Positions 15,515 through 51,032 are shown, numbered from the stretch's first letter. The stretch: 64,000 nt of DNA from an uncultured bacterium (GCA_963848965.1 CAWKFG010000001.1:1-64000); one strand, 5' to 3'. Notes: a model not told the origin generated them from the sequence alone. Numbers and translations: made by a program.

Positions 15515-18106
15515 ATGTTTATTATAAAATCATATAAGTGGTTACTAGGTGGTATATTTATTTTTAGTATGCACTCTCTTATAAGTATGAAAAGAGGAGA
15601 AGCTGATTTTCTTAGTGCAGAGCCTTTGAATGCTGAAGTAAGTAAAAAGCAAAAAGTAGATAGTCATGTGCTTACTATAAGACTATTAGATGCTGTTCAA
15701 AAGAATGATGGTCATGAAATTAAAGAGCTTATACGTCAAGGTGCTGATATTAACGCAGAAGATGCTGATGGTTGTACGCCGCTCATGATTGCTGTACAAA
15801 AAGAGTACTGCGATCTTGTTAAACAGTTTATTGAATGGGGAGCAGATATTAACGCTCAAGATGATGAAAGTAATACTGCATTATTTTATGCTGTAGAAGT
15901 TGGTAACAAAGAGCTCGTCAGAATACTTATTGATGCCGGTATTGATGTAAAGTGGACTAATTGTGATGATGTATCCGCACTTGAACTTGCTGCACAAAAG
16001 GCTAATGAAAGTGTTATGGAAGAGCTTTTACAAGCAGAACATGGTAATCGAAGAAAGGCAGAAGCACTCGCAGCCGCTGCTTATAGTGGCAACCCAGCTG
16101 CAGTAGAAAAGCTCTTGAAAGCAGGAGCTCAGGTTAATATGCCTTTGCAAGGAAACTTAACACCATGTATGTATGCTGTTGCAGGAAGACACAAAGAATT
16201 ATTAAAGAAGATTCTAGAAGCAGGAGCTGTTCCAACGAGTCATGATGAGCATAATATTTCTCCTCTGCTCTATGCAGTATGGAATAAACAGGAAGAAGCT
16301 GCTCAGTTGCTTATCAAACATGGTGCTTCTTCAGAGCCTGAAAAATTTGATGAAGCTCAAGAATTTGATAAGGAGCTTATACGCGCGTTAATAAAAAAAG
16401 ATATAAAGCAAGCATTATTCGTTTTAGAATTAGGAGCTAAAGTGCTTCCTCTCTTTCGTAAGATTGAGAATGAAAAGGATGATAATTTGCTCCAAACGCT
16501 TATTGAAGTAGTTGGCGGCGATGTAAACACAGTAAATAGTTATGGTTATACCTGTTTAATGATGGCAGCAGAGGCTGGTTTTTTGTATATAACTCAAGCG
16601 CTTCTAAAAAAGGGTGCTCAAGTAGACATAAAAACAGAGACTGAGGTAACGGCACTTACCTTAGCTGCAGCAAATGGGCATAAAGAAATAGTACAAGAGC
16701 TTCTTGCTCATGGAGCACTACCTGTATCAAATGACGCTGTAACTGATGATAGCAATGCATTTTTATTGGCTGTAATACGAGATGATCTTCCTACGGCTTC
16801 TTCCTTTATAGCATTACGCGGTAGAGATATTGCGCGAGTTTGTGGAGATGGTGGTATGACTTCTCTCATGTGGGCTGCTTGTATGAACAGTACACATGTG
16901 CTAAAAAGCTTGCTAGACGCAAAAGTTTCATTTGTTAAAAAAGACGCGCTTGGAAATACTGCTCTTTCTTTTGCTGTTGCTGCAGGAAATACGGCTATTG
17001 TGAAAGAATTTTTAGAAAATCAGTTTAAAAAGGTAGATTCAGAATCCAGATTTAACGATTTTATACAAAGAGTGTTTTCTTTTGTTAAACAGTATGTGTC
17101 TGCATTCTGGTCTCTTGCTGTGTCACCACAAGAACTTGTCGAAAGTATGTGTGCTACTTTGAAAGCTTCTTCATATACTGGAACAAACGATTTTATTATT
17201 ACCGTAGATAAGTTATTAGAAGAGAAATCTGCAAACTTCAAAGGTAATTTGAGAAGTATGGTAATCTTTTTTAGAGATTTTGTGAATGGCCAAAATAATG
17301 AAGGAGAGACGCCTTTAATGCTTGCTATTGGACGTAATCGTAAAGAGATATTTAACATGCTTTTAGAAGCGGGTGCACGGTGTGATGTAGCAAATAAAGA
17401 CGGAGATACACCGGTATCTCTAGCAATAGGTGAAGGTAATTGGGCGATGATGGTCAAGCTTGTAGAAAAAGGTGGTATAGGTAAGTTGAATGTTGAAGAG
17501 GTTTCAAAAAAACGAACTGAGGAGTATCTTCCTTTCTTCTTAAGCTCCTTTTCTCAACCGGAGATAGATCAATATCTTCGTAACTATAAAAAGTATCTTG
17601 CGTTTAGCAATGAAGAAATAAAGGCTCACTTGCTTGGAAGAACCTGTTTTAAAGATAATCATAGTAGATGCTTTCATCAAACAGTACTCATGTGGGCTGC
17701 ATTGTTTGGTCATGAAGAAATGGTAGATAAGCTTTTGGGATGCTCATTACCTGTATGGTATCTGAATGTGCACGATGCTTATGGTTGGACTGCAGTACGG
17801 TATGCGCTTCTTGTAGGCAACAGAAGTATAGCTCTTAAGCTTATTAATGCACACGAACAAGCGAGTAGCTCTTTAAAAAATAAAAGGGTTATTAACATTG
17901 CTGATGATAGAGGTGATACTGCTTTAATTCGTGCAATTGAACAAGGAGACTTATTACTTGTCAAACGTCTTATTAAAGTAGGAGCATGGCCTACTATAAG
18001 AGCAATCAAAGTTGCTGTTGAATTAGGCTATAGTGAAATGGCTACTCGTCTTCTTTCACTAATAGCTCTTAAGCCTAATGGACAACGATGGCCTAATCTT
18101 ATGTAG
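15515..18106 (+). CDS. Secreted ankyrin-repeat protein
   Basis: Signal peptide followed by many G.TPLM.A / GADIN repeats. Confidence 0.9.
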   Translation: MFIIKSYKWLLGGIFIFSMHSLISMKRGEADFLSAEPLNAEVSKKQKVDSHVLTIRLLDAVQKNDGHEIKELIRQGADINAEDADGCTPLMIAVQKEYCDLVKQFIEWGADINAQDDESNTALFYAVEVGNKELVRILIDAGIDVKWTNCDDVSALELAAQKANESVMEELLQAEHGNRRKAEALAAAAYSGNPAAVEKLLKAGAQVNMPLQGNLTPCMYAVAGRHKELLKKILEAGAVPTSHDEHNISPLLYAVWNKQEEAAQLLIKHGASSEPEKFDEAQEFDKELIRALIKKDIKQALFVLELGAKVLPLFRKIENEKDDNLLQTLIEVVGGDVNTVNSYGYTCLMMAAEAGFLYITQALLKKGAQVDIKTETEVTALTLAAANGHKEIVQELLAHGALPVSNDAVTDDSNAFLLAVIRDDLPTASSFIALRGRDIARVCGDGGMTSLMWAACMNSTHVLKSLLDAKVSFVKKDALGNTALSFAVAAGNTAIVKEFLENQFKKVDSESRFNDFIQRVFSFVKQYVSAFWSLAVSPQELVESMCATLKASSYTGTNDFIITVDKLLEEKSANFKGNLRSMVIFFRDFVNGQNNEGETPLMLAIGRNRKEIFNMLLEAGARCDVANKDGDTPVSLAIGEGNWAMMVKLVEKGGIGKLNVEEVSKKRTEEYLPFFLSSFSQPEIDQYLRNYKKYLAFSNEEIKAHLLGRTCFKDNHSRCFHQTVLMWAALFGHEEMVDKLLGCSLPVWYLNVHDAYGWTAVRYALLVGNRSIALKLINAHEQASSSLKNKRVINIADDRGDTALIRAIEQGDLLLVKRLIKVGAWPTIRAIKVAVELGYSEMATRLLSLIALKPNGQRWPNLM

Positions 18107-18307
18107 TAGACCGAAGCTTAAAAAGATTGAGCAGCTTGTATTAGCTTAGGTATATAGTGAAACAGCTATAGCTGTTTTAAAACACTTTGAAAAATACCTT
18201 ATAGACGTTGCTCCAAATGACCTGAATTACTATTTATGCAGTTAACTATTAGATCAAAGGAAAGCTCAATGTTCTAGTATTGCAGGTATTTTTAGAGACT
18301 CATAAGA

Positions 18308-18331
18308 ATAGCCCTGGTTTACCAGGGCTAT
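18308..18331. terminator. Hairpin between convergent genes
   Basis: ATAGCCCTGGT-TT-ACCAGGGCTAT. Confidence 0.6.
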
Positions 18332-18365
18332 GTATATCTGTAGTAGAAATAAGGACTTAGCTTCT

Positions 18366-19883
18366 TTATTTCATATCTTTATTCCACCAATGCTGCATAT
18401 TGTATCCCGTACGTATATTATGTTCTATTCTATCCCATGTTTCCATTTTGGATTGCAACTGTTGTAATCCAGTTTTCATGTTTTCAAGAGAAATAGCGCC
18501 TTCAGCAGATATTGTATCATTAATACAAATTAGAACTTGCCTTATCTCTTGAAAACATTCTATAACTTTATTAGTATATTGTATTTGGTGCTCGAGTAGT
18601 ATTGGTTTTACAAGATCTCTTTGTTTTATAAGGGCTTTTTCGTATAATTCTAGCACAGGAATCAATTCAATAAGTTTTTGTTTTATAGGTCTAAAATTGT
18701 GTGTTAGTATGCCTCCTTTAAGATAACAGTCTTTAAATGTCTCGTATTGGTAATTGAAGAAATTTCTAAGGTATGTTACTTGAGAAGGTACTTCTAAAGG
18801 ATATTCTTGTAATTGACTTTTTAATACCTCTCTCTCATGAACTTGTAGTTGTAATCTTTGAAGATTTGAAGTGGCAGTTGTAACGCTCTCTAGTAAGTGT
18901 TGCTCTCTTTGTTGCCATTGCTGATGTATCTTTGACCACTCTTGATGTTGCCCTTGTAATTGGTTATTGCTAGTAGCAAGTAAGTCTGTTAATCGTTTGA
19001 TTTCATTATTATCTTCTAATGATTTTTGTGCCGATTTAGCGCACTCGCCTTGTAATTGTTTTTCTAATGCAGATTTTTCTACACTTAGTTGATCAACTTG
19101 TTGTTTAACAGCAGCTACTGTGCTGTTACAAGCGCTCTCGAAAGAGCTTCTTGAAGAATGAAGATCGTTAAGTTGCTGCTGTATCTCTACAAATTTATTA
19201 ACCTGTCTCGTAACAGTAGCCATAAGGTGTTCAGGTTGGCTTAGGCAAGCAAATTCTTCTTTTAGAATATTAATTTTAGTTTGTATAAATGGAAGACTCT
19301 GTGCAATTACTGTAAGTAAGTCCCAATTATCAGTTTTTTGTATCCTCAATTTTAATAATTCGATTTCCTTTTTCCAGATAACTTGTTGCATATTAGCAAC
19401 TATCTCTCCTCTAAGGAAACCAACTACTATTATTAAACGATTAACTACTGCTATTTTAGATGCCAAAGCAAGCTCAATTATCGTTTCAGGCGAGTCCAGC
19501 TTTGAGCCATCTGCTTGACTTAAAGCTTGAAAATATTCTTTCCAGCATGGATATTCAGGAATAAGTATATTGGCAAGCGAACTTATTTGCTCGACTTTAC
19601 GTTCTTTTTCAAGTTCAGTCTTTGGTGCATCTGCTCCCGTAAATAGCAAAGCATAGAGATACTTATCTACTGTTGGATTACCCTCTTGTATTTGTTTGTG
19701 CTCTTTCCAAGCGTTAAATGCAAGTATGAGACCTTGTACAACTTCTTGATTTGCTCCCGTCGTTTCCGTTGCATAACGAGCTAGATCGTTTAAGAATAGT
19801 GGTTGATTTACTTTCTCTATCTCCATTGCATAACAAGCTAGATTGCTTAATAATAATAGACTAAAGTAGATTGTTTTGCTCAT
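18366..19883 (-). CDS. Secreted coiled-coil hypothetical protein
   Basis: MSKTIYFSLLLLSNLACYA|MEIEK; long Q/E/L-rich heptad region. Confidence 0.8.
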   Translation of the reverse strand: MSKTIYFSLLLLSNLACYAMEIEKVNQPLFLNDLARYATETTGANQEVVQGLILAFNAWKEHKQIQEGNPTVDKYLYALLFTGADAPKTELEKERKVEQISSLANILIPEYPCWKEYFQALSQADGSKLDSPETIIELALASKIAVVNRLIIVVGFLRGEIVANMQQVIWKKEIELLKLRIQKTDNWDLLTVIAQSLPFIQTKINILKEEFACLSQPEHLMATVTRQVNKFVEIQQQLNDLHSSRSSFESACNSTVAAVKQQVDQLSVEKSALEKQLQGECAKSAQKSLEDNNEIKRLTDLLATSNNQLQGQHQEWSKIHQQWQQREQHLLESVTTATSNLQRLQLQVHEREVLKSQLQEYPLEVPSQVTYLRNFFNYQYETFKDCYLKGGILTHNFRPIKQKLIELIPVLELYEKALIKQRDLVKPILLEHQIQYTNKVIECFQEIRQVLICINDTISAEGAISLENMKTGLQQLQSKMETWDRIEHNIRTGYNMQHWWNKDMK

Positions 19884-20224: not shown

Positions 20225-20596
20225 ATGATTAAAGTCATGCTAAAATTAGTCATTTGCACAGTATTTATAATGATTTCTCTGCATGCAATGCAGCAAGAAG
20301 TTAAACCAACTAATATTGTTACAAGCAAAATTGAGCAGACTAAAAGCGGTATTGTAGAAGCTCTAACTGAGGCAAGAGCAGTCTTGCATCTTATAAAAGA
20401 ACATCCTGTGCAAACAGTTGGCTTAATATCAGCAAGTGTGTTATTGCTTGCTTTATTTTGGGTTATTAGTCAACCGAGCCCACCTTCGTGTCTTGACTGT
20501 CTTGAAGCAGCGGCTTTTTCTGAGCGAGGGCCTTCTTCTTGTGATTTCATATGCAAAATCCCTATTTTAGGGAAATCCCACTTGACAGGACATTAG
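20225..20596 (+). CDS. Secreted/membrane hypothetical protein
   Basis: Signal peptide ending SLHA|MQQE, one hydrophobic segment, Cys-rich tail. Confidence 0.7.
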   Translation: MIKVMLKLVICTVFIMISLHAMQQEVKPTNIVTSKIEQTKSGIVEALTEARAVLHLIKEHPVQTVGLISASVLLLALFWVISQPSPPSCLDCLEAAAFSERGPSSCDFICKIPILGKSHLTGH

Positions 20597-20618
20597 TTTT
20601 TAAGCTACAACTTGAATC

Positions 20619-20948: not shown

Positions 20949-20949
20949 A

Positions 20950-21560: not shown

Positions 21561-21842
21561 ATGGTAAAGATTAAAATTACTCTAGTACTGCTGTTTATTA
21601 CTCTCGGTATTTCTAGTAATATGAGCGCTATGGCACCGGCTGCTCAGCAAGAAGAGGTTTCTATTGTAGGATTGTTAAAGCGTGGATGTAAGGACCTATG
21701 GACTTGGCTTGACAAAGTTGCTGAAGAAGAAGATAGGATAGATAGAGAAAGCCTTGATAAATTATTTAGAAAGCAAGAAAAAGATAGTAATCATACTCCA
21801 AGTGGCTCAAAAGAAAATACAGTTCCTAGTAAACAAAAATGA
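21561..21842 (+). CDS. Small secreted hypothetical protein
   Basis: Signal peptide ending NMSA|MAPAA; GGGG Shine-Dalgarno-like site. Confidence 0.7.
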   Translation: MVKIKITLVLLFITLGISSNMSAMAPAAQQEEVSIVGLLKRGCKDLWTWLDKVAEEEDRIDRESLDKLFRKQEKDSNHTPSGSKENTVPSKQK

Positions 21843-21894: not shown

Positions 21895-22305
21895 CTATGA
21901 GCTGCTCTTTAGAGGAGATTTATAGTAAGGCTCGTAAGTATAACCATCTAGATATTTTTTAAAAGAAAAAAGCGCAGTTTGCCACTTTGAGTATGCAAGT
22001 TCTAATAGTGCTATTACTGCGACTAAATTAACAGTACATTGAAAACCATTCATCAAATTTCCATATGGGTTCCCTCGAGGATCAGAATATCCTATTGCTT
22101 TCTGTAATCTATTGATTGTGAAACAGGCAGCAGCAAAATACATAAATGCAGTAGAGCTGCATCCTAAAGCTTTAAACATCTCGTATCCCCTATCTACATT
22201 AACTGTTTTTGGTCGTTGGTATGTTTGCTGAGGATTATCTTGTGTCATAGAATATACTGTGCTTATCAAGAATAAGAAAGGCAATAGTAAAAACATTATT
22301 TTCAT
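21895..22305 (-). CDS. Secreted/membrane hypothetical protein
   Basis: MKIMFLLLPFLFLISTVYS|MTQ; two hydrophobic segments. Confidence 0.7.
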   Translation of the reverse strand: MKIMFLLLPFLFLISTVYSMTQDNPQQTYQRPKTVNVDRGYEMFKALGCSSTAFMYFAAACFTINRLQKAIGYSDPRGNPYGNLMNGFQCTVNLVAVIALLELAYSKWQTALFSFKKYLDGYTYEPYYKSPLKSSS

Positions 22306-22520: not shown

Positions 22521-24251
22521 ATGAATTATAGTCGATATCTTATGTGTATATTTTTAGGTTTTTCTCTGTATGGTATGCAAAAGCCATCAGGAATCCAAGA
22601 ATATCATAAAAAAATTATTGTATTTTTAGATGCAGCTGGTAAGGGTAACAACGCTTTACTTGAAAGGCTCTTGGAACTTTCAGTACCAGTTAACGTCCGT
22701 GATAGTAAAGGTAATACTGCACTTATAATAGCAGCCTCAGTAGGAAAAATAGACACAATAAACTTTCTTATAGAACGTGGCGCATCTGTTAATGCTAAAA
22801 ATGAAGAAGGATGGACACCTCTATTGGTGGCTACAGCAACTGGTCAAACTGATGCTGTACGATGTCTTATTGAAAGAGGTGCGAGTATAAAGTGTGCAGA
22901 TGAGCATGGCGATACTCCTTTATTGCTTGCTGTGCATAATGGCTATATAGATCTTGTAATACTTCTCCTTGATAAGGGAGCGTATCTTGAAGAGATAAAC
23001 AAGCAAAAGTATACTGCTCTTTTGGCTGCAGCAGAAAAAGGTCGTAAAGATTGTGTAATCTTATTACTTGATAGGAATGCTTATATTGAAGCAAGATGTT
23101 ATGAAAAAGATACGCCATTGCTTGTAGCTGCAAATGGAGGTCATGAAGAAATAGTAGAACTGTTGCTTAATAAAGGAGCAGATATAAATGCGTGCAATAA
23201 GCAAGGTGATACTGCATTGATACGAGCAGCGTATAAAGGATATTCAAAAATAGTAAAGCTCCTTTTAGAAAGAGGGGCTCATAAAGAGACTACGAATGAG
23301 TATGGTACTACTGCCTTACTAGCAGCTGCTAGTAAAGGAGATGAGGAGTCAGTCAAGCTCTTGGTAGAAAGCGGAGCACAGATTAATGTACGTAATACAG
23401 ATGGTGCTACTCCTTTAGTCATTGCAGCAGTTAAGCGTCATAAAGAAATAGTAGAGTTTTTTCTTGAGCATGGTGCTGAAATAGACGTAATGCATCGTCG
23501 CGATGTTGCAGAACTGATAGAAGCTGGACAGGTCTTTGTGCAAGAGGATCTTGGCACTTTTATGGCAGCTCTTATGAAGAGAAAATTTAACGAAGTTATT
23601 ATAGCTTTATGTAAAATGGGTTTAAATATCAGAAGACGGTATGAACTTATAGAATATGGAGGCCAAACTATGCTCATAATGGCCGCCCGTTTTGATAATG
23701 CTCCAATAGCTCACTACCTTCTTTGCGAAGGAGCTCTTAGTGACCAAAGTGATGATTATGGCAAGACAGCGCTTATGTATGCAGCTCATCAAGGAAATAT
23801 CTCAATTGTATCTCTACTTATTGATAATAGTGCTAATATTGCTTTAAAAGCGCGGAATGGCACTACTGCTCTTACCTGTGCTTGTAGAGCCGGTCAGATA
23901 GAGGTGGTCAAAAAGCTTATAGCTACAGGAGCTTATCATAATGCATCCTTAGTAAATAGTGCGTTAAGGAGTGCTATAAAGTATAAATACTTTGACATAG
24001 CAAAAGAGCTGTTGGCGACAAGCGCAGTTGATGAGCATGGATACAAAGCTCTTATTGCTACCTTGGAAAAACATTATCCTGAGTGTAATCTAAGACTAAA
24101 AAAGTGTGTTATCTGCGGTACAAACAAAGAAAAACTCAAGATGTGTAGTACTTGTAAAATAGTGCCATACTGCTCCGTGGAGTGCCAAAAGCAGGATTGG
24201 AACATGCGTCATAGATTCGTCTGTCCTTCTTTAACTAAAGCTTCTTACTAA
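22521..24251 (+). CDS. Secreted ankyrin-repeat protein with C-terminal MYND zinc finger
   Basis: Regular ankyrin repeats; CVICG...CSTCKIVPYCSVECQKQDWNMRHRFVC. Confidence 0.9.
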   Translation: MNYSRYLMCIFLGFSLYGMQKPSGIQEYHKKIIVFLDAAGKGNNALLERLLELSVPVNVRDSKGNTALIIAASVGKIDTINFLIERGASVNAKNEEGWTPLLVATATGQTDAVRCLIERGASIKCADEHGDTPLLLAVHNGYIDLVILLLDKGAYLEEINKQKYTALLAAAEKGRKDCVILLLDRNAYIEARCYEKDTPLLVAANGGHEEIVELLLNKGADINACNKQGDTALIRAAYKGYSKIVKLLLERGAHKETTNEYGTTALLAAASKGDEESVKLLVESGAQINVRNTDGATPLVIAAVKRHKEIVEFFLEHGAEIDVMHRRDVAELIEAGQVFVQEDLGTFMAALMKRKFNEVIIALCKMGLNIRRRYELIEYGGQTMLIMAARFDNAPIAHYLLCEGALSDQSDDYGKTALMYAAHQGNISIVSLLIDNSANIALKARNGTTALTCACRAGQIEVVKKLIATGAYHNASLVNSALRSAIKYKYFDIAKELLATSAVDEHGYKALIATLEKHYPECNLRLKKCVICGTNKEKLKMCSTCKIVPYCSVECQKQDWNMRHRFVCPSLTKASY

Positions 24252-24491: not shown

Positions 24492-25496
24492 ATGAAGAAT
24501 CTATTAGCAGTAGGAATATGTCTTTTAGCTATGTCATCTCTTTATGGCATGGAAAAAGACTACTCAAAGATTGCATTAAACACTAATGATATTAAGCTCA
24601 TTCGTATTGAAGCTTTCGTAACTCAAAAGATAAATGACCTTATTAAGCAAAATTTCGGTTGTGTTGCAGAAAGACTTGAAGCGATCAATAAGAAAGAAGT
24701 GCTGGATAATACAGACTATGAGTCTATAGAAAGCCTTGTAAAAAAGCTCGTTAGCATTGTATACAGGGATTTAGAAGCTGCAAAGAGTCAAACTATAGAA
24801 GCAGTTATTGAATTTTTAGTAGAGCAACACCTTAAAAAGGTATTCCCGCGCCTTTACGCAAATAAAAAGAGAAAAGTACAGGAGATAATTCCTCATCGAG
24901 TATCTTCAAAAGTTGCGCGCCTCATAGAAGGTGCAGATGTATCTTTAACTAATAAATTCTTACAAGCGACTCCATTAATTAATGCAGTAAAACAAAGAAA
25001 TATTGTCCTTGTTCGTAGCCTTATACACACAAGCGATGTAAATGAGCGTGACGGTAATGGGCGTACTGCTTTAATGCATGCATGTGCTCTTGGTTTTGAA
25101 GATATAGTCGATCTATTACTCTTTGAAGGAAAAGCTGATAGTTCATTAACTGATGAAGATGGTAACTCAGTTCTATTCTTTGCAGCAGAACATGGTCATG
25201 CTTCACTGGTAAAGATGTTTATAGAAGCCTATGGTATGGATGTAAATAGTGTAAATAGTCGTGGAACACCACTGCTTGTCTTAGCCTCATTTAAAGGGCA
25301 TTTGGGCGTAGTGCAAGAGCTGCTTCAACATCATCCAAAAGTTGTGGCTGTTGATGCACTTGGTAATAATGCATTACATGCTGCAGTATCTTCTGGTAAT
25401 AGCATACTTGTAAAAGTTCTTATAGAAGCAGGAGTACCGCTTAATACACCTAATAACCGTGGACAAAATCCATTAAATATTGCACTTGGTATATAA
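24492..25496 (+). CDS. Secreted ankyrin-repeat protein
   Basis: Signal ending SLYG|MEK; GRTALMHAC, GNNALHAA. Confidence 0.9.
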   Translation: MKNLLAVGICLLAMSSLYGMEKDYSKIALNTNDIKLIRIEAFVTQKINDLIKQNFGCVAERLEAINKKEVLDNTDYESIESLVKKLVSIVYRDLEAAKSQTIEAVIEFLVEQHLKKVFPRLYANKKRKVQEIIPHRVSSKVARLIEGADVSLTNKFLQATPLINAVKQRNIVLVRSLIHTSDVNERDGNGRTALMHACALGFEDIVDLLLFEGKADSSLTDEDGNSVLFFAAEHGHASLVKMFIEAYGMDVNSVNSRGTPLLVLASFKGHLGVVQELLQHHPKVVAVDALGNNALHAAVSSGNSILVKVLIEAGVPLNTPNNRGQNPLNIALGI

Positions 25497-25559: not shown

Positions 25560-26798
25560 ATGAATTTATTATATAAGCTGACTATAGTTCTTTTATGTTC
25601 TATAAGTAGTATTATAGGTATGGAGCAAGACTTTGCAGAAAAGTATGCCCAGATGCCTCTTGAAGCTTCAGAAGAAGAGAAAGTACAGGTAATAACTGTT
25701 CTTGATAAAGTAATGGAACGTTACTTTACTGTGTTAAAAGATGCTTTTGCAAAAGCAGAAGAGAATCAACTACTTTATAGCACTATCATAGAAGAGCTAT
25801 GTAAAGAGATTAAAACGTCTGTATTGCAAGCGCTTGAAAAAGAAGGTGATGAGCGAGCTGGAAAAATAATAGATTATTTTATCAACGTGAGCCTTTTAAA
25901 AAGCTTTGGCTGTCAGCTTGTGTGTAAAGTGGCAAATACTCCTTCAACTTTAAAGGTTGCTAGTTCTTTAGCAACAGGTAAAAGAAAAGAAAGCGAAAAA
26001 GATCCAATACAAGAGCAGCCCCTGTTAAAGCAAGAGAAGCGGCCTAAACAAGAAAATGGGGTAAGTGGAATCAATACAATGCTCTTAATTGGAGCTGTGC
26101 AAGAGCGTAATAATGCTCTACTTCAGCTTCTTCTAACTAAAGACATTAACGTTGATGGTCAAGATAAAGAAGGTCGTACTGCTTTAATGCATGCATGTGC
26201 GCTAGGTGCTCAGTTAGAAGCAGAGGTGTTGCTTTTAGAAGGACATGCAAATTGTTCGTTAATGGATAACAAAGGAAACTCTGCTCTTTTCTTTGCAGCA
26301 GGTAATGGCCATGCTTCGCTTGTAAAGATGTTTATAACACTTTATAGCATGAGTCCAGATAGTAAAAATGGAGCAGGAATACCAGTGCTTGTATTAGCTG
26401 CGCTTAATGGGCACTTTGGTGTTGTTAATGAGCTTCTTGATCTTAAGGCTGATGTTCATGTATGTGATAGCGCTGGTCATACTCCACTTATGGCAGCAGT
26501 TATTTCGGGAAATGAAGAGCTTGTAGCGAGACTTATAGAAGCAAAGTCACCACTTAATAATTGTAATGGTGATGGAGAAACTGCATTAGTGCTTGCATTA
26601 AAGGCAGCTGCTGGTCTTATTAAAAAACTTGACGGCGGACTTTCATCTCAAACTTATAAAACTATTGCTCTTATGTTGGTTCAAGCGGGTGCCGATCTTT
26701 ATATAACTAATAAACAAAGTCTTAATGCGCTTTTAATTGCTCAAACGCACCTAGAAGACTTTTTAACAGTTCTTTTAGACGCATCAACTCAAAAATAG
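25560..26798 (+). CDS. Secreted ankyrin-repeat protein, paralogue of the upstream gene
   Basis: Signal ending IIG|MEQ; shares GRTALMHACALG and GHASLVKMFI with 24492. Confidence 0.9.
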   Translation: MNLLYKLTIVLLCSISSIIGMEQDFAEKYAQMPLEASEEEKVQVITVLDKVMERYFTVLKDAFAKAEENQLLYSTIIEELCKEIKTSVLQALEKEGDERAGKIIDYFINVSLLKSFGCQLVCKVANTPSTLKVASSLATGKRKESEKDPIQEQPLLKQEKRPKQENGVSGINTMLLIGAVQERNNALLQLLLTKDINVDGQDKEGRTALMHACALGAQLEAEVLLLEGHANCSLMDNKGNSALFFAAGNGHASLVKMFITLYSMSPDSKNGAGIPVLVLAALNGHFGVVNELLDLKADVHVCDSAGHTPLMAAVISGNEELVARLIEAKSPLNNCNGDGETALVLALKAAAGLIKKLDGGLSSQTYKTIALMLVQAGADLYITNKQSLNALLIAQTHLEDFLTVLLDASTQK

Positions 26799-28140: not shown

Positions 28141-29274
28141 ATGAAGAAAAGTTTAGTTCTTGCATGCGTGATGATCTTTGGTACCTCTTCTTTAAGATGT
28201 ATGGAACCTAAGAGAGCTCGCAATGAAAATTTTACAAGGCATTCTGTGCCGGAGAAGAAGGTAAAAAAAGAGAGTACTCAAACTGCTTTTATTGAAGCAA
28301 TATGTGCTGGAGATACAACAGAGATACTACGGCAAAAAGAATTAGGAGCTTGCTTAAATGTACATGACGATGAGGGAAGATTGCCCTTAGTAGAAGCAGC
28401 ACGTGTAGGTGATATGAGTACGTGCAATTTACTTATCTATGAGGGTGCAGAGGTTAATAAGATAGATAAAAATGGACAGACTGCGCTTATAGCTGCTATT
28501 AAAAGCGGTCATTATGACATCATGCATATGCTTTTAGAATCTGGAGTTTCGCTTACTACACATGGTCAAGGGTTAAGTGCTCTTTTTGCTGCGGCACAGG
28601 CAGGTAATAGTGTAGTGCTTAAAGCCCTGTTAGATGCTCGCGTTCCTCTTAATACTAGTAGTATAACAGAGATGCTTAAAAGAGCTTGTAATGTAGGACA
28701 TCTTCCTTTTGTTTGTGAATATATGAATTTGCTTAATTGTTCTCTTTTACAAAAGATTATAACTATTTTGGCTCAACAGCAAGATGTAAAAGAAATTGCT
28801 TTATTGCTGAGTATCGGTGCTGATGAAGAATTATCAAAATATAGGGCTAATCCTATTGGGTATAAAGATATGGCACTTGCTCATAAGGTTGGTTATTATA
28901 AAATAAAAGCATTGTTCGGTGCATGTATCTTTGGGCATACGGAGATAGTTTCTTTGTTACTTAAGGAAATGCCAAAAATGTACAGTAATACACGGGATAA
29001 ATTTGCAAGAACAGCTGTTTTATATGCAATGCGCTATGGTTACACAGATATAGTGCATATGATGCTTGAGCATCAGGGTAAGGCTTTTATTACTAATGCA
29101 GATGATGTAGCGGCAGCATTTAATTATGCTATTAAAGCCCATGATGTAAAGGCAATAAAGATACTTAGTGCTTTTGGTGCTCAATGTGGTATGAGCCATA
29201 TAGAACTTGCTTGTAAGGTTAATGATGAGCAAGTTACACAAGCAGTTATTGAAAATTATTATAAGGTAACGTAA
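28141..29274 (+). CDS. Secreted ankyrin-repeat protein
   Basis: Signal ending LRC|MEPKR; GQTALIAA repeats. Confidence 0.85.
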   Translation: MKKSLVLACVMIFGTSSLRCMEPKRARNENFTRHSVPEKKVKKESTQTAFIEAICAGDTTEILRQKELGACLNVHDDEGRLPLVEAARVGDMSTCNLLIYEGAEVNKIDKNGQTALIAAIKSGHYDIMHMLLESGVSLTTHGQGLSALFAAAQAGNSVVLKALLDARVPLNTSSITEMLKRACNVGHLPFVCEYMNLLNCSLLQKIITILAQQQDVKEIALLLSIGADEELSKYRANPIGYKDMALAHKVGYYKIKALFGACIFGHTEIVSLLLKEMPKMYSNTRDKFARTAVLYAMRYGYTDIVHMMLEHQGKAFITNADDVAAAFNYAIKAHDVKAIKILSAFGAQCGMSHIELACKVNDEQVTQAVIENYYKVT

Positions 29275-41929: not shown

Positions 41930-42712
41930 TTACTGCGGGATATTGTGCTGAATTGCCATAGCAATCTCATCAAGGGTATCATGAAATGGTATTATATGAT
42001 TATTAAATAAGTCGTTCTGCTCAGCGAGTGATAGAGAAGATTCAGTTAAAATATAATTACGCATATTCATATACATATCAAAAAGATTGTTCAAATCTGT
42101 ATTAAGATCTTTAAGTACGTCTTCGTCGTGAAGAATATGTTCGGTCGTAGCTTTATTAACTTTGAAAACGAGCTCATTTATGCTTTGTTTCCAGGCTTCT
42201 AGATCTATACGAAACGATAAGCTGTCGATAATTTTCTCAAGTGATGAAGAAGGGCCTCCTAGTGCATGATGAAGTTTAGTTGGCTTTGATGTTGTTGAAG
42301 TTTCTGCTGTAATTTCATCACTATCAAGCTTGAGTTGTTCTGCTTGTTCTAAAAGAGTTTGTAACGTATTGCTTGTGTATCCTTGTTGTATATGAGAGTC
42401 TACTGAATTTTCAAACGTAGATACTTTTTCCTTGAAAGAGCTAATGGATGTGCGTAGATTTTTTATTTTTCCTGACTCATTAGCTTTATCTCTAAACTCT
42501 TTAAGCTCTTGTATCATTTCAACTGGAAAAATCGCAAAGAAAGAAGAACGGTCTAAGCGTAAAAGATCAAGTAGATCATATGAAGTAGACTGTTTTGTCC
42601 TTTTAACAGGTGTCCTCGGAGTATTATCTGTGTCTCTATCTCTTTTATGTTGTTCCATTGCATGAGCAAGAGAACAGGATAAAAACATAAGTGCTATATA
42701 CTTTTTATACAT
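41930..42712 (-). CDS. Secreted helical hypothetical protein
   Basis: Signal ending AHA|MEQHKR; basic cluster; FAIFPVEMIQEL. Confidence 0.75.
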   Translation of the reverse strand: MYKKYIALMFLSCSLAHAMEQHKRDRDTDNTPRTPVKRTKQSTSYDLLDLLRLDRSSFFAIFPVEMIQELKEFRDKANESGKIKNLRTSISSFKEKVSTFENSVDSHIQQGYTSNTLQTLLEQAEQLKLDSDEITAETSTTSKPTKLHHALGGPSSSLEKIIDSLSFRIDLEAWKQSINELVFKVNKATTEHILHDEDVLKDLNTDLNNLFDMYMNMRNYILTESSLSLAEQNDLFNNHIIPFHDTLDEIAMAIQHNIPQ

Positions 42713-44557: not shown

Positions 44558-45889
44558 ATGATAAAAAATCTTCTTTATAATGCTTTTTTGTTCGGTGCTT
44601 TTACACTATATCCAATGTATAAGCCTACTTATACGGCAGATTCTTTAAAAAATATCAGTATCCAGCAACTTGCTCAAAAGCTTGTCACTTGCGATCTCCA
44701 GAGTCTTTTAGAGAATAGTAATCTAAACCAACTTCCAGAAGGTCTTACAGAGCATCTTAAGAAAGCTCTTATAGATGATAATCTCCTTGTGTATGTAGAT
44801 GTTTTTCAAAAAGATCTGATTCCTGAAGTTAAACATATTCCTCTGCAGTATTATTGTGCTTCTGATGGAGCTGCATTTATTACAACTTCTAGCAAAGAAG
44901 ATGGGACAAGCAGCATACATATTTTTCCCTGGCCGTCATTAGAGCTGAAAATAACTTTTGACTGTCCTGAAAGTATTCTGTCATTGGTAGCCGTTCCACG
45001 CTCTGAACTCTTTTTTACTGCTCATGAAGAGAGTATACGCTTATGGAGTATAAAAGAAAAAAGGTGTATACAAGAATTTAAAAAAGAAAAGGGAGTTATT
45101 TGTGATTTAGTAACTAATGTTCAAGGAACTATGCTTCTTATGCGTTCAGTACTTGATAATTGCAATTATAGACTTATGAAACTCACTTCCTTTCCTTATA
45201 CCTTATCTGAATCTTGTACTCAAACTGAGGGAAAAACTAACCTTGACCTTGAATTAACTCCTGATGGTGAGTATGCAATTGAGTCTGAGGATGGGTATAT
45301 TTGCTTTCTTTCACTGATTACCGGTAAAGTTATAAAGATTGCGACTATAAAGGAGCATGTAAGTAGTATACATCTAAGTCCTGATGGCAGTTTTTTAATA
45401 GCTCTTTTAGGAACAACTTTACCTGCTGTCAACGGGTTTAGCCAAATAACTGACATGCAACCGTACCTGTTTGCTGTAAAAGATGGAGAAAAGATGGTCC
45501 CTGTTCATCTTACAGGGCATAATTGTATGGTAAAAGCAGTAAAAATAAGTCCTAATGGTAGGTATTTTGTTACAGGAGATGAAAAAGGTACTCTTCGTCT
45601 TTGGGATCTGTGTACGCTTGCTTCTATAGAGTTAAAAAATCATCCATTGACCTGTATAAACGATCTTCAATGGTCGCCAGATGGTAAGTTTCTCTTTGTA
45701 AAAGGAGATAAGGAAGGGACATATGTGTATAATTTTGAATCACTTATGAATACTGCAACTATAAAAGAGCTTGTCCTTATTGCAAAGTTAAAAAAATTTG
45801 GTATTCAAGTGCTCAGTAGTTCCTCCTATAGATCTATCTTTGAAAAATCTTCTTATCATGATAAACTTTCTGAGTATTTTAAGATTTGA
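44558..45889 (+). CDS. Secreted WD40-repeat protein
   Basis: TGH..VKAVKISPNGRYFVTGDEKGTLRLWD; WSPDGK. Confidence 0.85.
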   Translation: MIKNLLYNAFLFGAFTLYPMYKPTYTADSLKNISIQQLAQKLVTCDLQSLLENSNLNQLPEGLTEHLKKALIDDNLLVYVDVFQKDLIPEVKHIPLQYYCASDGAAFITTSSKEDGTSSIHIFPWPSLELKITFDCPESILSLVAVPRSELFFTAHEESIRLWSIKEKRCIQEFKKEKGVICDLVTNVQGTMLLMRSVLDNCNYRLMKLTSFPYTLSESCTQTEGKTNLDLELTPDGEYAIESEDGYICFLSLITGKVIKIATIKEHVSSIHLSPDGSFLIALLGTTLPAVNGFSQITDMQPYLFAVKDGEKMVPVHLTGHNCMVKAVKISPNGRYFVTGDEKGTLRLWDLCTLASIELKNHPLTCINDLQWSPDGKFLFVKGDKEGTYVYNFESLMNTATIKELVLIAKLKKFGIQVLSSSSYRSIFEKSSYHDKLSEYFKI

Positions 45890-45933: not shown

Positions 45934-46458
45934 TTATACAGCTTTTTCTATAAGAACTTTATAAGCAGGGTTTATCATTTGCATGATTTGAGTGGCTTTG
46001 CTTCTTTGTAACTCATTATCCTTTGGTTGCTTATCAGGATGAAAGCGGAATGTAAGAGCTCTATACCTTTCTAATAGAGCTTTTCTATTGAAGGCATCAT
46101 TAGGATGTAGTCCAAGAAGTGGAGCAGCAGTAGGAGCAAAATTTCTTGCAAATCCAAGCTGTTCATAAACATCTGCTCTTTCAGCTACAGGAACTTTATC
46201 ATCAAGAAGAATATGTTCATACACATTTTCCCACATACCAATGCCTTCGGCTCTTTTTTTTGGATTCTGCACAGTATAAGGTAAATGTTCTTTCTCTTGT
46301 TTGCCACCTTCTTGCTCTTGTCCTGAAGGAGTATAGCCTAGAGCAGGCTCTTCTTGAGGAGTTTCGGTAGAAACTAGCTCTTGTGGAACTGTTAACATTC
46401 CATAAAGAGGTATACTCAGAAGTACAAAACCTGCCAAAAGTACATAGTTGTTTTTCAT
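45934..46458 (-). CDS. Secreted protein with a C-terminal J-domain
   Basis: LLGL...RYRALTFRFHPDK...MQMINPAYKVL. Confidence 0.85.
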   Translation of the reverse strand: MKNNYVLLAGFVLLSIPLYGMLTVPQELVSTETPQEEPALGYTPSGQEQEGGKQEKEHLPYTVQNPKKRAEGIGMWENVYEHILLDDKVPVAERADVYEQLGFARNFAPTAAPLLGLHPNDAFNRKALLERYRALTFRFHPDKQPKDNELQRSKATQIMQMINPAYKVLIEKAV

Positions 46459-46581
46459 GGAAAAGTCCTTTATTTTTAAATAAACTATTTTTTATTATAG
46501 TAATTTAAAAGGGCATGATTTTTCAAGAAATTTACTTATCGTGAGGAATTTCTGCAGCAGTAGTAAAAAACTATAAAGACC

Positions 46582-47418: not shown

Positions 47419-47432
47419 AGAATACCCTATAA

Positions 47433-47495
47433 TAGCAATGTACGTTTAAATAGTAGTATACTGAGTGTACAAAGTATCGGGCTCTTATGCAACTA
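47433..47495 (+). repeat. 63-bp direct repeat, copy 1
   Basis: TAGCAATGTACGTTTAAATAGTAGTATACTGAGTGTACAAAGTATCGGGCTCTTATGCAACTA; 2 mismatches to copy 2. Confidence 0.9.
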
Positions 47496-47915: not shown

Positions 47916-48105
47916 CTCGGTCAAATTTGAGTCCTTTAGTTTTTATTTTTACAGCTGTAAATTTTCTCTTGCGTTGAGGTTTTGCTTTAGGTGATTCGTC
48001 TATAAGGATAATAACCCTCAATTCATTTTGTAAATTATCAAGGTATTTCTTAGGAATCTTTATAGTGCCATCTTCAACTTTGGTAGTAAATTCAATAGCG
48101 CGCAT
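47896..48105 (-). CDS. Putative antitoxin
   Basis: 69 aa, AIEFTTKVEDGTIKIP...FDRDEANTR, overlapping the PIN gene. Confidence 0.75.
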   Translation of the reverse strand: MRAIEFTTKVEDGTIKIPKKYLDNLQNELRVIILIDESPKAKPQRKRKFTAVKIKTKGLKFDRDEANTR

Positions 48106-48234
48106 TGTAGTCTCCTTATATAGTTATTTCTTTTCTACTCTTATTGTACCATATTGTTATTAGGGCAACAATAATTATACAGCTTAGGAGGTATAAATTA
48201 CACAAGAGAAATCATTAAAAAGCCGACATTTACG

Positions 48235-48297
48235 TAGCAATGTGCGTTTAAATAGTAGTATACTGAGTGTACAAAGTATCGAGCTCTTATGCAACTA
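48235..48297 (+). repeat. 63-bp direct repeat, copy 2
   Basis: TAGCAATGTGCGTTTAAATAGTAGTATACTGAGTGTACAAAGTATCGAGCTCTTATGCAACTA. Confidence 0.9.
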
Positions 48298-48315
48298 GTT
48301 ACTAAGAAAGAATAG

Positions 48316-48891
48316 ATGATATTATTGGTTGATGGTTATAATCTTTTAAAATATATTATCAAAAAGGACTTTGCTACAGAAAAAGAGCGTAATTGGCTAC
48401 TATCTGAGTTGACAGAGTATGCTCGAGCAAAAAAGCACTCAATTATAATTGTCTTTGATGGAGGTCCTTATGAACGGCCTACCTATACAAAAAGAGGACA
48501 AGTTGCTATTCTCTATTCAGGAACTCGCCAAAGTGCAGATGATGTAATTAAAGAGCATGTTAGTCACTATCCAGCTTCACGGCTTCTTATTGTATCATCT
48601 GATAGAGGACTCTATTCATTTGCTGCACGAGCTCGTGTTGCTACTGTAGATGTAGAGGCCTTTTATGTGTTGATGCGTGAAAAAAAGCAACCTGCATTAC
48701 GACTTGAACGGGCAAAAGGATCAGCTCAAAAGCTGCATACAGAAAAGAATAAAGAGCTTGATACTCTTATGCAAGAGGCAAGTGAAGTACTTATGTATAA
48801 AGATAATGAAGGTCAAAATCATTCTGGCAAAACGACACAAAAACTTTCAAAAGAAGAGCGTAAATTACTAAAAATTACCAAAAAGCTATGA
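48316..48891 (+). CDS. NYN-domain RNase (YacP/Rae1-like)
   Basis: LLVDGYNL, IVFDG, SADDVI, IVSSDR. Confidence 0.85.
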   Translation: MILLVDGYNLLKYIIKKDFATEKERNWLLSELTEYARAKKHSIIIVFDGGPYERPTYTKRGQVAILYSGTRQSADDVIKEHVSHYPASRLLIVSSDRGLYSFAARARVATVDVEAFYVLMREKKQPALRLERAKGSAQKLHTEKNKELDTLMQEASEVLMYKDNEGQNHSGKTTQKLSKEERKLLKITKKL

Positions 48892-49307
48892 AGATTATCT
48901 ATTCCCTTGAAACAATAGACATACCAGTAAATGCCTTATATACACTTATGCCACAATGTGCAGTATTTACCTTTACAGGAAATTTAGGAGCGGGTAAGAC
49001 AACATTAGTACAGCATCTTTTGCGTCGTTGTGGAGTGCAAGAAGTAATTACAAGTCCAACATTTACGTATGTTAATACGTATACAAATGCTCAAGGCCAA
49101 ACATTCTACCATTTTGATCTTTATCGTATGCACTCGTTAAACGACTTTTTAGATGTAGGCTTTGATGAATATTTATATGCACCTCAAAGTTGGGCATTTA
49201 TTGAATGGCCAGAGATACTTACGCCTCTTTTAAAGCATAAGGTATGTCATAACCATATTGATTACTATGATCATCAAAGAGTGCTTGAATATACTGTTAT
49301 TAAATAG
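48888..49307 (+). CDS. tsaE: tRNA threonylcarbamoyladenosine ATPase
   Basis: GNLGAGKTT, SPTF, HFDLYR, FIEWPE. Confidence 0.95.
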   Translation: MKIIYSLETIDIPVNALYTLMPQCAVFTFTGNLGAGKTTLVQHLLRRCGVQEVITSPTFTYVNTYTNAQGQTFYHFDLYRMHSLNDFLDVGFDEYLYAPQSWAFIEWPEILTPLLKHKVCHNHIDYYDHQRVLEYTVIK

Positions 49308-49309
49308 CT

Positions 49310-49903
49310 TTAAAGATCTATATTTTTCCCACCTTTTTTGGCGACAACTTTAATATCACCGTATCCATTAATAGAAATTTCAGCAATAGTATCAATACCT
49401 TGTAAATTAACTTCTTTAAACGATCTACTTGTTATAATTGCAAGATCTGTTGGTGCAGCGGCTTTAACAAGGGTCATGACTTGTGGTTTGCTAAGGATAT
49501 TTCTATATTGTCCAGGTTTAAGAGGCTCTTTTTGCGCAGCTCCTTGTAATGTTTGTCGGGGGCCATAGACTGGACGATCAGTAGGGCGTATTCGTTGTGG
49601 TGGCACTGTTGGTTGTACAAATCTTCTCCCTTGTACACTTTGTCCAGCTGGTAATGTAGAAGTAGTAGACTGGATTCCTTGTGATGGAGCAGCCCCTTTT
49701 GCAGGTTCTTTAGGAGGAACAAAAGAGGGAACGTAGATGCCGTACATACCAGTAGTCTCTTTTGGAGAAAGTTTTTTCTTATCGTAAAACATAATAAAGG
49801 CAGGAGAATCTTTAAATTGATGGGTAACCAAATCTATACTTTTCAAGTACCCTTTAAGGAGTGGGGTGCAGCATAATATGAGTAAAATAAGAAATCTTTT
49901 CAT
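49310..49903 (-). CDS. Secreted hypothetical protein
   Basis: Signal peptide; P/Q-rich middle region. Confidence 0.65.
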   Translation of the reverse strand: MKRFLILLILCCTPLLKGYLKSIDLVTHQFKDSPAFIMFYDKKKLSPKETTGMYGIYVPSFVPPKEPAKGAAPSQGIQSTTSTLPAGQSVQGRRFVQPTVPPQRIRPTDRPVYGPRQTLQGAAQKEPLKPGQYRNILSKPQVMTLVKAAAPTDLAIITSRSFKEVNLQGIDTIAEISINGYGDIKVVAKKGGKNIDL

Positions 49904-50097
49904 GATAAACCTCTTTTAAATTTAATTTCATTTTTTAATAAAATAGCACGATGTGCTGAAACTTATCAATGATTTATATAAGTAATTTTGACAAATAAAT
50001 AGAAGATGAGGGTTCACTTAGAAATTAAGAATATGCTCTATAAATGAAACTTTATGTAAATTCGAGAAAGAGTAAAGCTTGTAGGTACTAGAAGATA

Positions 50098-50123
50098 AAG
50101 AGCTCTCAAATCTGAGAGCTCTT
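50098..50123 (-). terminator. Hairpin after the ankyrin gene
   Basis: AAGAGCTCTCA-AATC-TGAGAGCTCTT. Confidence 0.6.
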
Positions 50124-50126
50124 ATA

Positions 50127-51032
50127 TTAAGAAAGTTCTTCAATAGAGGGAAGCAAGCGATCTTGTTGAACAAATGTTAGTGCTATGTGAGCTCCATATG
50201 TTAAAAGGAGCTGCACTATTTCGCTGTTTCCGCGTCTTATGGCATTAACCAGGGCAGATTTACCTGTGTTATTTAATAGAGTTGTATCTGCCCTATGTTG
50301 TAAAAGAATGCTAATAATCTCTTTGCGACCAACAAGTGTAGCGAGCATTAAAGCAGTAGAACCATGTTCGTTTTGAATGTTTGGAGAAGCTCCGTTAAGC
50401 AGTAAGAAACGTACTATATTCTCCTGATTGCAAAATACTGCATCCATAAGTGCTGTTGATCCTGTATTATCTTGTTTATTAACATATGCTCCTTGAGCAA
50501 TAAGTTGTGCTACAGTTTCAAACTTACCATGCCAGCAAGCGAGCATTAAAGCTGTTTGTTCGTGCTCATTTTGTTCATCTACATAAGCTCCTGCGTCAAT
50601 CAATGCCTTAATACAGTAAGCATTTCCCTGTACTGCTGCAAAATGTAATGCAGTATTGTTATTATAACCTCTTTTATGCACATCAGCTTTATTGCTTAAA
50701 AGAAAGAGAATAACAGTATAATGTCCTTGTGATGCAGCAAGCATGAGCGCAGTTTTTCCCTGCTCATCTGTTGTGTTAATATCAATATGTGGAAGAAGAA
50801 GTTGTGCTCTTTCTATATCGGCTTCTTTAACAGCCTGTAACCATTCTGCTTCAAGCATATAGGGAAGAAAATCTTGAGAGAGGGTAGAAAGAGGTTCCCC
50901 TTTGGTTTTCTTCATAAATTGTATCCGTTCTTCATCATGAAGCCTTTTTTTAGGCTGTGGCTTTTCCATACTATAAAGTACAAAACTAGCGCTTATAAAA
51001 GAGAGCGCTGTTATTATAGAAATAAATTTCAC
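50127..51032 (-). CDS. Secreted ankyrin-repeat protein
   Basis: Signal ending LYS|MEKPQPKKR; G.TALM.A repeats. Confidence 0.9.
   Translation of the reverse strand: MKFISIITALSFISASFVLYSMEKPQPKKRLHDEERIQFMKKTKGEPLSTLSQDFLPYMLEAEWLQAVKEADIERAQLLLPHIDINTTDEQGKTALMLAASQGHYTVILFLLSNKADVHKRGYNNNTALHFAAVQGNAYCIKALIDAGAYVDEQNEHEQTALMLACWHGKFETVAQLIAQGAYVNKQDNTGSTALMDAVFCNQENIVRFLLLNGASPNIQNEHGSTALMLATLVGRKEIISILLQHRADTTLLNNTGKSALVNAIRRGNSEIVQLLLTYGAHIALTFVQQDRLLPSIEELS

Follow-up and report, generated by a model that had tools for sequence, protein, structure and literature searches.

A methionine directly after Sec-type leaders of eukaryote-like and orphan proteins in a Dependentiae genome

A lineage-specific preference for the first residue of exported proteins has been described in the Bacteroidetes, where, under the Q-rule, substrates of signal peptidase I carry Gln at the first mature position (+1) and this Gln is cyclised to pyroglutamate (PMC5837995, PMC10653852). 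Here we describe a comparable preference for Met in a 64,000-nucleotide stretch of DNA from an uncultured bacterium (GCA_963848965.1, CAWKFG010000001.1:1-64000; hereafter the window), in which 13 genes between positions 15,515 and 51,032 encode a Sec-like leader followed at once by Met. The window makes up the opening 64 kb of contig C1 in a five-contig genome (G000) of 1.73 Mb with a GC content of 0.37; the MurA of this genome shares 60-69 % identity with loci titled "Candidatus Dependentiae bacterium". As in the Q-rule, a lineage prefers one first mature residue after a Sec/signal peptidase I leader, an effect thought in that case to act via the stability of exported proteins. The differences are that the residue is Met rather than Gln (135 against 17 of 437 predicted leaders), that it marks one cargo class, about one third of the predicted leaders, rather than most signal peptidase I substrates, and that a modifying enzyme for the Met rule was not identified, with no search for glutaminyl cyclase made.

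The Dependentiae, parasites of protists, form a phylum that is widespread but has hardly been cultured, and in which eukaryote-like proteins, numbering in the hundreds, would have to be selected and delivered by means of Sec and a type II-like system alone. The published accounts of Babela massiliensis (PMC4378268) and Chromulinavorax destructans (PMC6561590) report signal peptides on 79 of 126 ankyrin proteins and signal sequences in 44 % of coding sequences, and a Sec plus type II route has been inferred there for the eukaryote-like proteins. The genome studied here shares the phylum, the cargo (ankyrin, WD40, F-box, RING) and the inferred route. The word "methionine" is absent from the main texts of these two papers, where the signal-peptide passages are silent on the first mature residue; "methionine", "TM6" and "Dependentiae" are absent from the text of the Q-rule paper PMC5837995. 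No published description of the Met rule was found in the full-text literature on Dependentiae or Babela signal peptides, ankyrin proteins and secretome, and the wider literature on signal peptidase, N-terminal methionine and effectors held nothing relevant by title or abstract start. For a cargo-specific Met rule after leaders we found no description in print; the Q-rule is the closest described phenomenon, and the Met rule would add a second case in which the exported proteins of one lineage have come to share a fixed first mature residue.

Two further systems are similar in part. Bacterial lipoproteins carry a lipobox, L-x-[A/G/S]↓C, cut by signal peptidase II (an arrow marks the cleavage site, here and below). 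The Met-rule leaders likewise have a defined end ([L]-[Y/F]-[A/G/S]) and then one invariant residue that would define the fate of the mature protein, but that residue is Met, which cannot carry a thiol-linked lipid, and the sequence that follows is polar and charged. In eukaryotes, N-termini of the class Met-Asp/Glu/Asn/Gln are acetylated by NatB, and methionine aminopeptidase leaves Met in place before large residues. The same dipeptide class is found in 130 of 180 Met-rule ends (72 %; 62 of 83 when one protein is taken per family), with acetylation itself predicted only; these ends would arise from proteolysis in a bacterium, not from translation on host ribosomes, and Asp is rare and Lys common at +2. 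Finally, in anthrax lethal factor the N-terminal residue left by processing governs the fate of the protein in the eukaryotic cytosol (PMC2518864), although that case is a single protein studied by experiment, whereas the rule described here is proteome-wide and known from sequence alone.

Leader-methionine junctions in the window and the genome

A sequence-only reading of the window had listed 13 leader-Met junctions, and all 13 were found where it had placed them. The leaders are 18-24 aa long, the inner Met codon is ATG in 13 of 13 genes, the sequence after it is polar, and an AGGA-like Shine-Dalgarno (SD) motif lies 6-10 nt ahead of the first start codon in all 13. By Pfam, the products comprise six ankyrin proteins, a WD40 protein and one whose J-domain match is weak, the other five being orphans. 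Coordinates below are those of the leader plus the Met codon.

15515..15589, plus strand: leader of 24 aa, ankyrin protein of 863 aa (gene 15515-18106), ...HSLIS↓MKRGEA
19824..19883, minus strand: leader of 19 aa, orphan coiled-coil-like protein of 505 aa (gene 18366-19883), ...LACYA↓MEIEKV; no Pfam match
20225..20290, plus strand: leader of 21 aa, orphan of 123 aa (gene 20225-20596), ...ISLHA↓MQQEVK
21561..21632, plus strand: leader of 23 aa, orphan of 93 aa (gene 21561-21842), ...SSNMSA↓MAPAAQ; another Met lies 3 residues upstream, so the exact site is ambiguous
22246..22305, minus strand: leader of 19 aa, orphan of 136 aa (gene 21895-22305), ...STVYS↓MTQDNP; has later hydrophobic stretches and may be a membrane protein
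22521..22577, plus strand: leader of 18 aa, ankyrin and MYND-finger protein of 576 aa (gene 22521-24251), ...FSLYG↓MQKPSG
24492..24551, plus strand: leader of 19 aa, ankyrin protein of 334 aa (gene 24492-25496), ...SSLYG↓MEKDYS
25560..25622, plus strand: leader of 20 aa, ankyrin protein of 412 aa (gene 25560-26798), ...SSIIG↓MEQDFA
28141..28203, plus strand: leader of 20 aa, ankyrin protein of 377 aa (gene 28141-29274), ...SSLRC↓MEPKRA; Cys at -1
42656..42712, minus strand: leader of 18 aa, orphan of 260 aa (gene 41930-42712), ...SLAHA↓MEQHKR
44558..44617, plus strand: leader of 19 aa, WD40 protein of 443 aa (gene 44558-45889), ...FTLYP↓MYKPTY; Pro at -1, atypical
46396..46458, minus strand: leader of 20 aa, weak J-domain protein of 174 aa (gene 45934-46458), ...IPLYG↓MLTVPQ; DnaJ at 26.3 bits, cut-off 27.8
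50967..51032, minus strand: leader of 21 aa, ankyrin protein of 301 aa (gene 50127-51032, GTG start), ...FVLYS↓MEKPQP

As the sequence-only reading had stated, every ankyrin protein of the window carries the junction (six of six by Pfam, at 15515, 22521, 24492, 25560, 28141 and 50127), and Met is absent from a NAGPA glycosidase (NYG↓Q) and a clostripain (TAA↓D), both identities being confirmed by Pfam. The WD40 proteins are divided, with the junction in one of three (44558, not 29436 or 32003). Of the consensus proposed earlier, [LVAC]-[YH]-[AGS]↓M-[EQ], the His at -2 proved rare genome-wide. Both LYP↓M and LRC↓M, with Pro and Cys at -1, are atypical for signal peptidase I. The MYND zinc finger of the ankyrin protein at 22521-24251 is C-terminal (residues 529-568) and of eukaryote type (Pfam, 43 bits).

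The pattern is genome-wide, far above chance and much larger than the window. The genome was represented by 1579 open reading frames (ORFs) of at least 60 aa from a home-made, simple longest-ORF caller with greedy non-overlap, and cleavage sites throughout are predictions by home-made heuristics. A blind (-3,-1) cleavage rule that ignores +1 predicted 437 leaders, and in these the claimed excess of Met at +1 was borne out: Met was found in 135, against a Met background of 1.67 %; Leu came next (37), and Gln was found in 17. A statistic that makes no use of cleavage sites, namely which residue immediately precedes the first charge, gave Met in 128 of 449 soluble leader proteins, 101 of them Met-Glu (binomial p ~1e-84 against a generous expectation of 3 %). 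Met also accounted for 6.4, 9.3, 7.9, 8.4 and 4.7 % of residues at positions 19-23 in 700 leader-like ORFs (7.2 % over these positions), compared with 1.5-2.6 % in the other 879 (2.1 %). Met-rule genes cluster, with 24 adjacent pairs against ~11.5 expected.

A strict set of 180 leader-Met genes was selected on an 8-residue hydrophobic window (Kyte-Doolittle (KD) value >=2.0, no charge), with -1 and -3 not used. Its detector recovers 9 of the 13 window junctions, and the genome counts are therefore conservative. The leading residues in this set were Leu (59), Ser (26), Ile (22), Thr (21), Val (17) and Ala (15) at -3; Tyr (54), Phe (31), Leu (24) and Gln (19) at -2; Ala (55), Gly (46), Ser (42), Cys (14) and Thr (10) at -1; and Glu (92), Gln (29) and Lys (21) at +2, with Asp in 3. 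Lys, Gln, Pro and Arg prevailed at +3, and Glu, Asp and Ala at +4. Small residues at +2, which permit removal of Met, are avoided (9 of 180). Two other detectors were set aside: a leader position-specific scoring matrix trained on -12..-1, whose threshold was not cleanly settable and whose "non-leader" control held over-extended ORFs (its output, not relied on, was Met in 93/164, and in 19/79 outside the training set), and a liberal detector allowing Met <=11 residues past the core, which was unspecific in that other residues scored equally high.

The residues directly before Met are of the cleavage type, as would be expected if the predicted sites fall there: -1 is A/G/S/C/T in 167 of 180 proteins (A/G/S in 143), and -3 is one of the allowed A/L/V/I/S/T/G/C in 173. 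Lys or Arg within the first 8 aa provides a basic n-region in 157, the commonest leader lengths are 18-22 aa, and a hydrophobic h-region and a signal peptidase I gene complete the features of the Sec/signal peptidase I class. Other leader classes do not match. A Tat-type RR in the first 12 aa occurs in 1 of 180; the hydrophobic segment precedes the Met and the next 30 residues are polar (mean KD -0.94), unlike type IV pilin-like leaders; and +1 is Met rather than the Cys of lipoproteins, with true lipobox proteins being separate (MLFG↓C at window position 51203; an OmpA-family protein, L150). We are confident that the leaders are ordinary Sec-type signal peptides, probably cut by the single signal peptidase I of the genome, and that the cargo class has been selected for Met followed by E/Q/N/D/K. 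Cleavage would take place at the leader-Met bond.

The sequence-only reading had also raised the possibility that the downstream Met is the real start. An SD-like motif precedes the first start in 88 of the 180 genes and the inner Met in 2, compared with 412 of 4811 other internal Mets (8.6 %). The leader is translated, as shown by the SD lying ahead of the first start and by a full signal-peptide anatomy, which untranslated DNA would not keep. If the inner ATG were instead the genuine start, or an alternative one, the leader would be an annotation artefact or present on only some of the molecules, so that exported and cytosolic forms coexist; this would accord with the inner codon being ATG in 180 of 180 genes and with the many genes of the genome that have no clear SD. 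We nevertheless reject this explanation as extremely improbable, since the SD lies before the upstream start (in 13 of 13 window genes) and is depleted before the inner Met, and since the upstream part retains its full anatomy in >180 genes as well as in other genera.

Cargo, descent and distribution of the Met rule

Comparison of cargo classes made use of 94-400 kb samples of 18 other genomes, treated with the same pipeline; kin are not independent and the samples are small, so the per-genome figures given further below are rough. Ankyrin proteins were called by phmmer and domains by Pfam. The suggested difference between ankyrin/WD40 proteins and envelope proteins was large: over all samples, Met was at +1 in 78 of 161 ankyrin/WD40 proteins and in 3 of 78 conserved envelope proteins, taken as non-repeat leader proteins conserved in >=3 other genomes (Fisher p 1e-13), with orphans at 113 of 656. 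In this genome alone, 78 of the 147 ankyrin proteins have a predicted leader and 48 of those 78 have Met at +1, while Met was found in 0 of 22 conserved envelope leaders. Conservation in >=3 relatives' samples was seen for 0 of 86 non-repeat Met-rule proteins versus 23 of 267 other leader proteins. By Pfam, 20 conserved leader proteins included BamA, a secretin, an OmpA-family lipoprotein, FKBP, DsbD, a Cache protein and others, and Met was present in only one, a hydrolase-like protein.

Domain content followed the same division. In a systematic sample of 20 Met-rule proteins outside the ankyrin/WD40 screen, seven had C2H2 (two), RING, TPR, LRR (one each) or weak ankyrin (two) matches, and the others were a MutS-like protein, a DUF6829 protein, a GspC-like anchor that is probably a false positive, and 10 without a match. 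The matched sample of 20 non-Met leaders held PI-PLC, PLD, AAA and DUF proteins as well as several false leaders (Rossmann N-termini), and no interaction domains. The non-Met leaders of the genome often expose Gln, Glu, Tyr, Lys or Arg. It is highly likely that the Met class comprises host-directed, eukaryote-like or orphan proteins (ankyrin, F-box-like, C2H2, RING, TPR, LRR, MYND and some WD40), for which delivery to the host is predicted, and equally so that resident envelope proteins and lipid or sugar hydrolases stand outside the rule. A leader followed by Met-Glu/Gln appears to mark host-directed cargo and could serve as a practical effector predictor.

Two groups of leader proteins were noted in passing. 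A tandem leader↓MQE family lies at G000:C1:233000-241000 (L242, L243), and two scanned members have C2H2 fingers (up to 8); a homologue in G025, a genome of another family, reads ...YSS↓MQK. Three proteins with MutS domain V also have leaders (G000:C1:197471-199528, C4:643224-645308 and C1:404295-407330; L141, L142, L245), two without Met and one with it, and a mismatch-type ATPase behind a signal peptide is odd.

Grouped by mature region, the 180 strict proteins separate into 83 families; 72 are singletons, and the largest, ankyrin-based, has 73 members. When one protein was taken per family (n=83), +2 was Glu in 43, Gln in 13, Asn in 5, Asp in 1, a small residue in 5 and L/I/F/W/Y in 9. The number of families and singletons, together with the same +2 bias, rules out descent from one expanded family. 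Similarity of 5' DNA was detected in 32 of 16110 gene pairs, of which 21 are plain paralogues and 11 lack mature-region similarity; a mobile leader cassette is ruled out, as only those 11 pairs share a 5' module alone. Because 83 families have converged on the same +2 bias, the data point to selection behind the Met rule rather than to shared descent or a cassette.

The behavior of paralogues is in line with this. In 27 F-box-like paralogues, the leaders differ and the spacer from Met to the motif varies from 3 to >20 residues, and the leader ends at Met in 22, Ile in 2, Leu in 1 and Ser in 1, with no visible leader in 1; the Met goes with the end of the leader rather than with the domain. Among within-genome paralogues of <50 % identity (617 alignments), Met was kept at a frequency of 0.49, versus 0.19-0.34 for neighbouring positions, and at 50-80 % identity (41 alignments) at 0.85 versus 0.32-0.68. 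Comparisons between genomes did not add to this: in 29 best-hit pairs of non-repeat Met-rule proteins the alignments seldom reach the divergent N-termini, and the Met does not stand out in the G002 and G010 alignments or in the hydrolase-like family given below.

These observations bear on the alternative offered with the original prediction, in which a leader was grafted before an old start codon. The Met would then be a relic: genes that used to be cytosolic, many of them acquired from eukaryotes or giant viruses, would have been extended upstream to include a leader, with the former start codon left in place. The cargo is indeed eukaryote-like, and upstream extension is the simplest way to gain a leader, with AT-rich upstream DNA encoding hydrophobic residues. 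Two genes, G000_114 and G000_1388, start at the "inner" Met with upstream DNA that reads as a broken leader (one with ...FSLNA before the ATG), and are probably decaying copies. However, the residues after the inner Met are unlike the genome's own N-termini. Glu follows in 92 of 180 (51 %) and a small residue in 5 % (52 % and 6 % of independent families), whereas in 168 cytosolic genes with ATG and SD, Glu was second in 11 (6.5 %) and a small residue in 34.5 %. Homologues begin at the Met in only 10 of 1426 alignments, and those inspected were offsets onto another leader's start or genes with a broken leader upstream. In addition, an SD remnant before the inner Met is present in only 2 of 180, the Met persists across differing leaders and differing distances to the first domain, and the pattern is common to several families of the phylum, which implies long retention. 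The grafting alternative is weakened by these results, in particular the +2 spectrum and the homologue alignments, and we consider a relic quite improbable.

The rule was also observed in relatives. The genomes were sampled by a phylum-level search, all lie in one order, and each is 0.8-1.9 Mb. By the blind rule, Met at +1 in the partial samples of family f1 was found in 17/55 leaders (G003), 14/63 (G004), 5/18 (G008), 11/90 (G002) and 2/16 (G006; 4/18 by the charge statistic), and elsewhere in 5/26 (G021, f10), 4/22 (G035, f11) and 4/35 (G025, f11). Other samples gave 0/49 (G005, f1), 0/37 (G011, f1), 1/17 (G040, f1), 0/19 (G027, f12), 1/22 (G055, f14) and 3/41 (G016, f5), and genomes lacking the rule served as negative controls for the pipeline. 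The count of 7/39 for G056 (f5) is likely inflated, as many of its ankyrin leaders (L116-L120) end ...S[M/V]YA↓AQE rather than in x↓Met-Glu; in that sample the residue ahead of the first charge is most often Gln (14/37). G010 had 1/55 by the charge statistic, yet its ankyrin proteins read ...SLEA↓MQE and ...SVEG↓MQK, an apparent negative caused by Glu in the c-region misleading the charge filter. In all likelihood, the rule is widespread across several Dependentiae genera and families and absent from some of those sampled, and is a lineage trait rather than a peculiarity of the window.

The export machinery did not differ with the rule. One Peptidase_S26 match above the cut-off and two M24 peptidases (~250 aa and ~440 aa) were found in each of G000, G002, G003, G005 and G011, and neither a further, dedicated signal peptidase I nor an additional methionine aminopeptidase was found, the counts being the same with and without the rule in these five genomes. 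Secretins number three in G000 and G003 and two in G002, G005 and G011, so that copy number shows no clear link (G002 has the rule, G005 and G011 do not). The three of G000 are tandem genes at G000:C4:764526-775000 (frames of 1153, 818 and 796 aa).

Possible roles of the methionine

The reading we favour, tentatively and at somewhat less than even confidence, is that the Met is a "cap" that gives a cleaved N-terminus a host-made look. Gln, Glu, Tyr, Lys and Arg at the N-terminus act as N-degrons in eukaryotes, and non-Met leader ends would expose such residues in the eukaryotic cytosol. A Met before a large polar residue would instead leave Met-Glu/Gln/Asn/Asp, an end that methionine aminopeptidase should not trim and of a class that eukaryotes give their own proteins and that NatB acetylates there. 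The cleaved protein might then reach the protist cytosol or nucleus resembling a host-made protein and evade N-terminal quality control. The +2 spectrum is the set that blocks Met removal and is largely the NatB class, and the cargo domains are ones that act in the eukaryotic cytosol or nucleus. There is precedent for an effect of this kind, in that the residue at the N-terminus of a bacterial protein in the host cytosol sets its potency via the N-end rule (PMC2518864). It is possible, though we would not expect it, that the cap forms half of a two-part address, in which the Sec leader exports and signal peptidase cuts at such a place that every host-directed protein is reborn with a Met-Glu/Gln end that the host treats as self. 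On this speculative reading the new end would stay untrimmed, perhaps NatB-acetylated, and invisible to the Arg/N-degron pathway, which would amount to a proteome-wide, trans-kingdom mimicry code; the effector repertoire of any Dependentiae genome could then be read directly from sequence.

Several points weigh against a cap. NatB acts mainly on nascent chains, which makes acetylation of an imported protein uncertain, and Ala, Ser, Thr and Gly are also stabilising, so that the choice of Met is left unexplained. Asp, which suits NatB just as well, is seldom found at +2 (3/180), and Lys (21/180) lies outside the NatB class. Mimicry would also lead one to expect other stabilising residues in host-directed proteins that lack the Met, and this was not borne out: stabilising residues in non-Met leaders were at 42 % in ankyrin/WD40 proteins, 37 % in conserved residents and 41 % in orphans, by a noisy site predictor. 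There was no Met excess over -1 in alignments to G002 (106) or G010 (79), and in a hydrolase-like family (L152 and relatives) Met was present in 1 of 19 members. Some relatives run ankyrin arsenals without the Met rule; besides the ...YA↓AQE ends of G056, five ankyrin leaders of G005 (0/49 leaders overall) continue with Gly, Ala or Thr, by eye. Cleavage, secretion, host-cytosol delivery, acetylation and any effect on stability are all predictions from sequence.

The division between host-directed proteins and residents would be explained equally well if a Met-Glu/Gln N-terminus made by signal peptidase I were read in the periplasm as a sorting tag that splits outgoing cargo from residents, which is the second function that the sequence-only reading had proposed. 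With a single signal peptidase I in five of five genomes checked, any discrimination must come after cleavage. Secretins are present, and type II secretion is reported to be the sole system found in Babela (PMC4378268). The aromatic residue at -2 is more frequent in Met-rule leaders (58/135 vs 76/302), a hint of a distinct leader flavour. To our knowledge, however, type II secretion cargo has no linear N-terminal signal, and the classes here that would typically be type II cargo (clostripain, NAGPA glycosidase, PI-PLC, PLD) have leaders that lack the Met. Secretin number does not follow the rule, and no candidate receptor turned up, with no systematic receptor search made. A sorting tag seems to us rather unlikely, although mimicry of host N-termini and a sorting code both fit the data and would look the same at the level of sequence.

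A role inside the bacterium is less probable again. In one form, Met at +1 with an acidic +2 would aid Sec export or cutting, and in another, a functional cousin of the Q-rule, it would shield the following Glu or Gln from aminopeptidases or pyroglutamate formation; we give either form little chance. Met-rule proteins do start slightly more charged and disorder-prone, with a more negative net charge over +1 to +6 (-0.39 vs 0.00), and -1 is often Gly, Ser or Cys instead of Ala. The Q-rule is a precedent for a lineage fixing the +1 residue for protein stability (PMC5837995, PMC10653852). On the other hand, the same peptidase cuts residents that lack Met, Ala at -1 is equally common in both classes (60/135 vs 137/302), no modifying enzyme was identified (the M24 count being two with and without the rule), and the restriction to host-directed cargo is unexplained.

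With the cap and sorting readings it becomes directly testable whether the N-terminus that signal peptidase leaves determines secretion or, instead, how the protein survives inside the host. Amoebae support the growth of one member of the phylum at least (PMC4378268), and N-terminal proteomics and Met-to-X reporters are therefore feasible.

Other features of the window

The first part of the window, positions 1-10300, differs in composition, with a GC content of 0.46-0.72 versus the genome's 0.37. Encoded there are a NuoF-like flavoprotein, RidA, an FMN reductase, a DDE transposase and an RlaP-family protein. The segment has the appearance of foreign DNA or of a contig end that is chimeric in the assembly. 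Near the boundary with lower GC, the ORF at 10327-11730 has matches to FGAR-AT linker and Cache domains. At 11723-15174, an acetate kinase (Pfam) adjoins a 778-aa ORF that is phosphoketolase-like by eye, and the pair is a small energy-metabolism remnant in an otherwise host-dependent genome.

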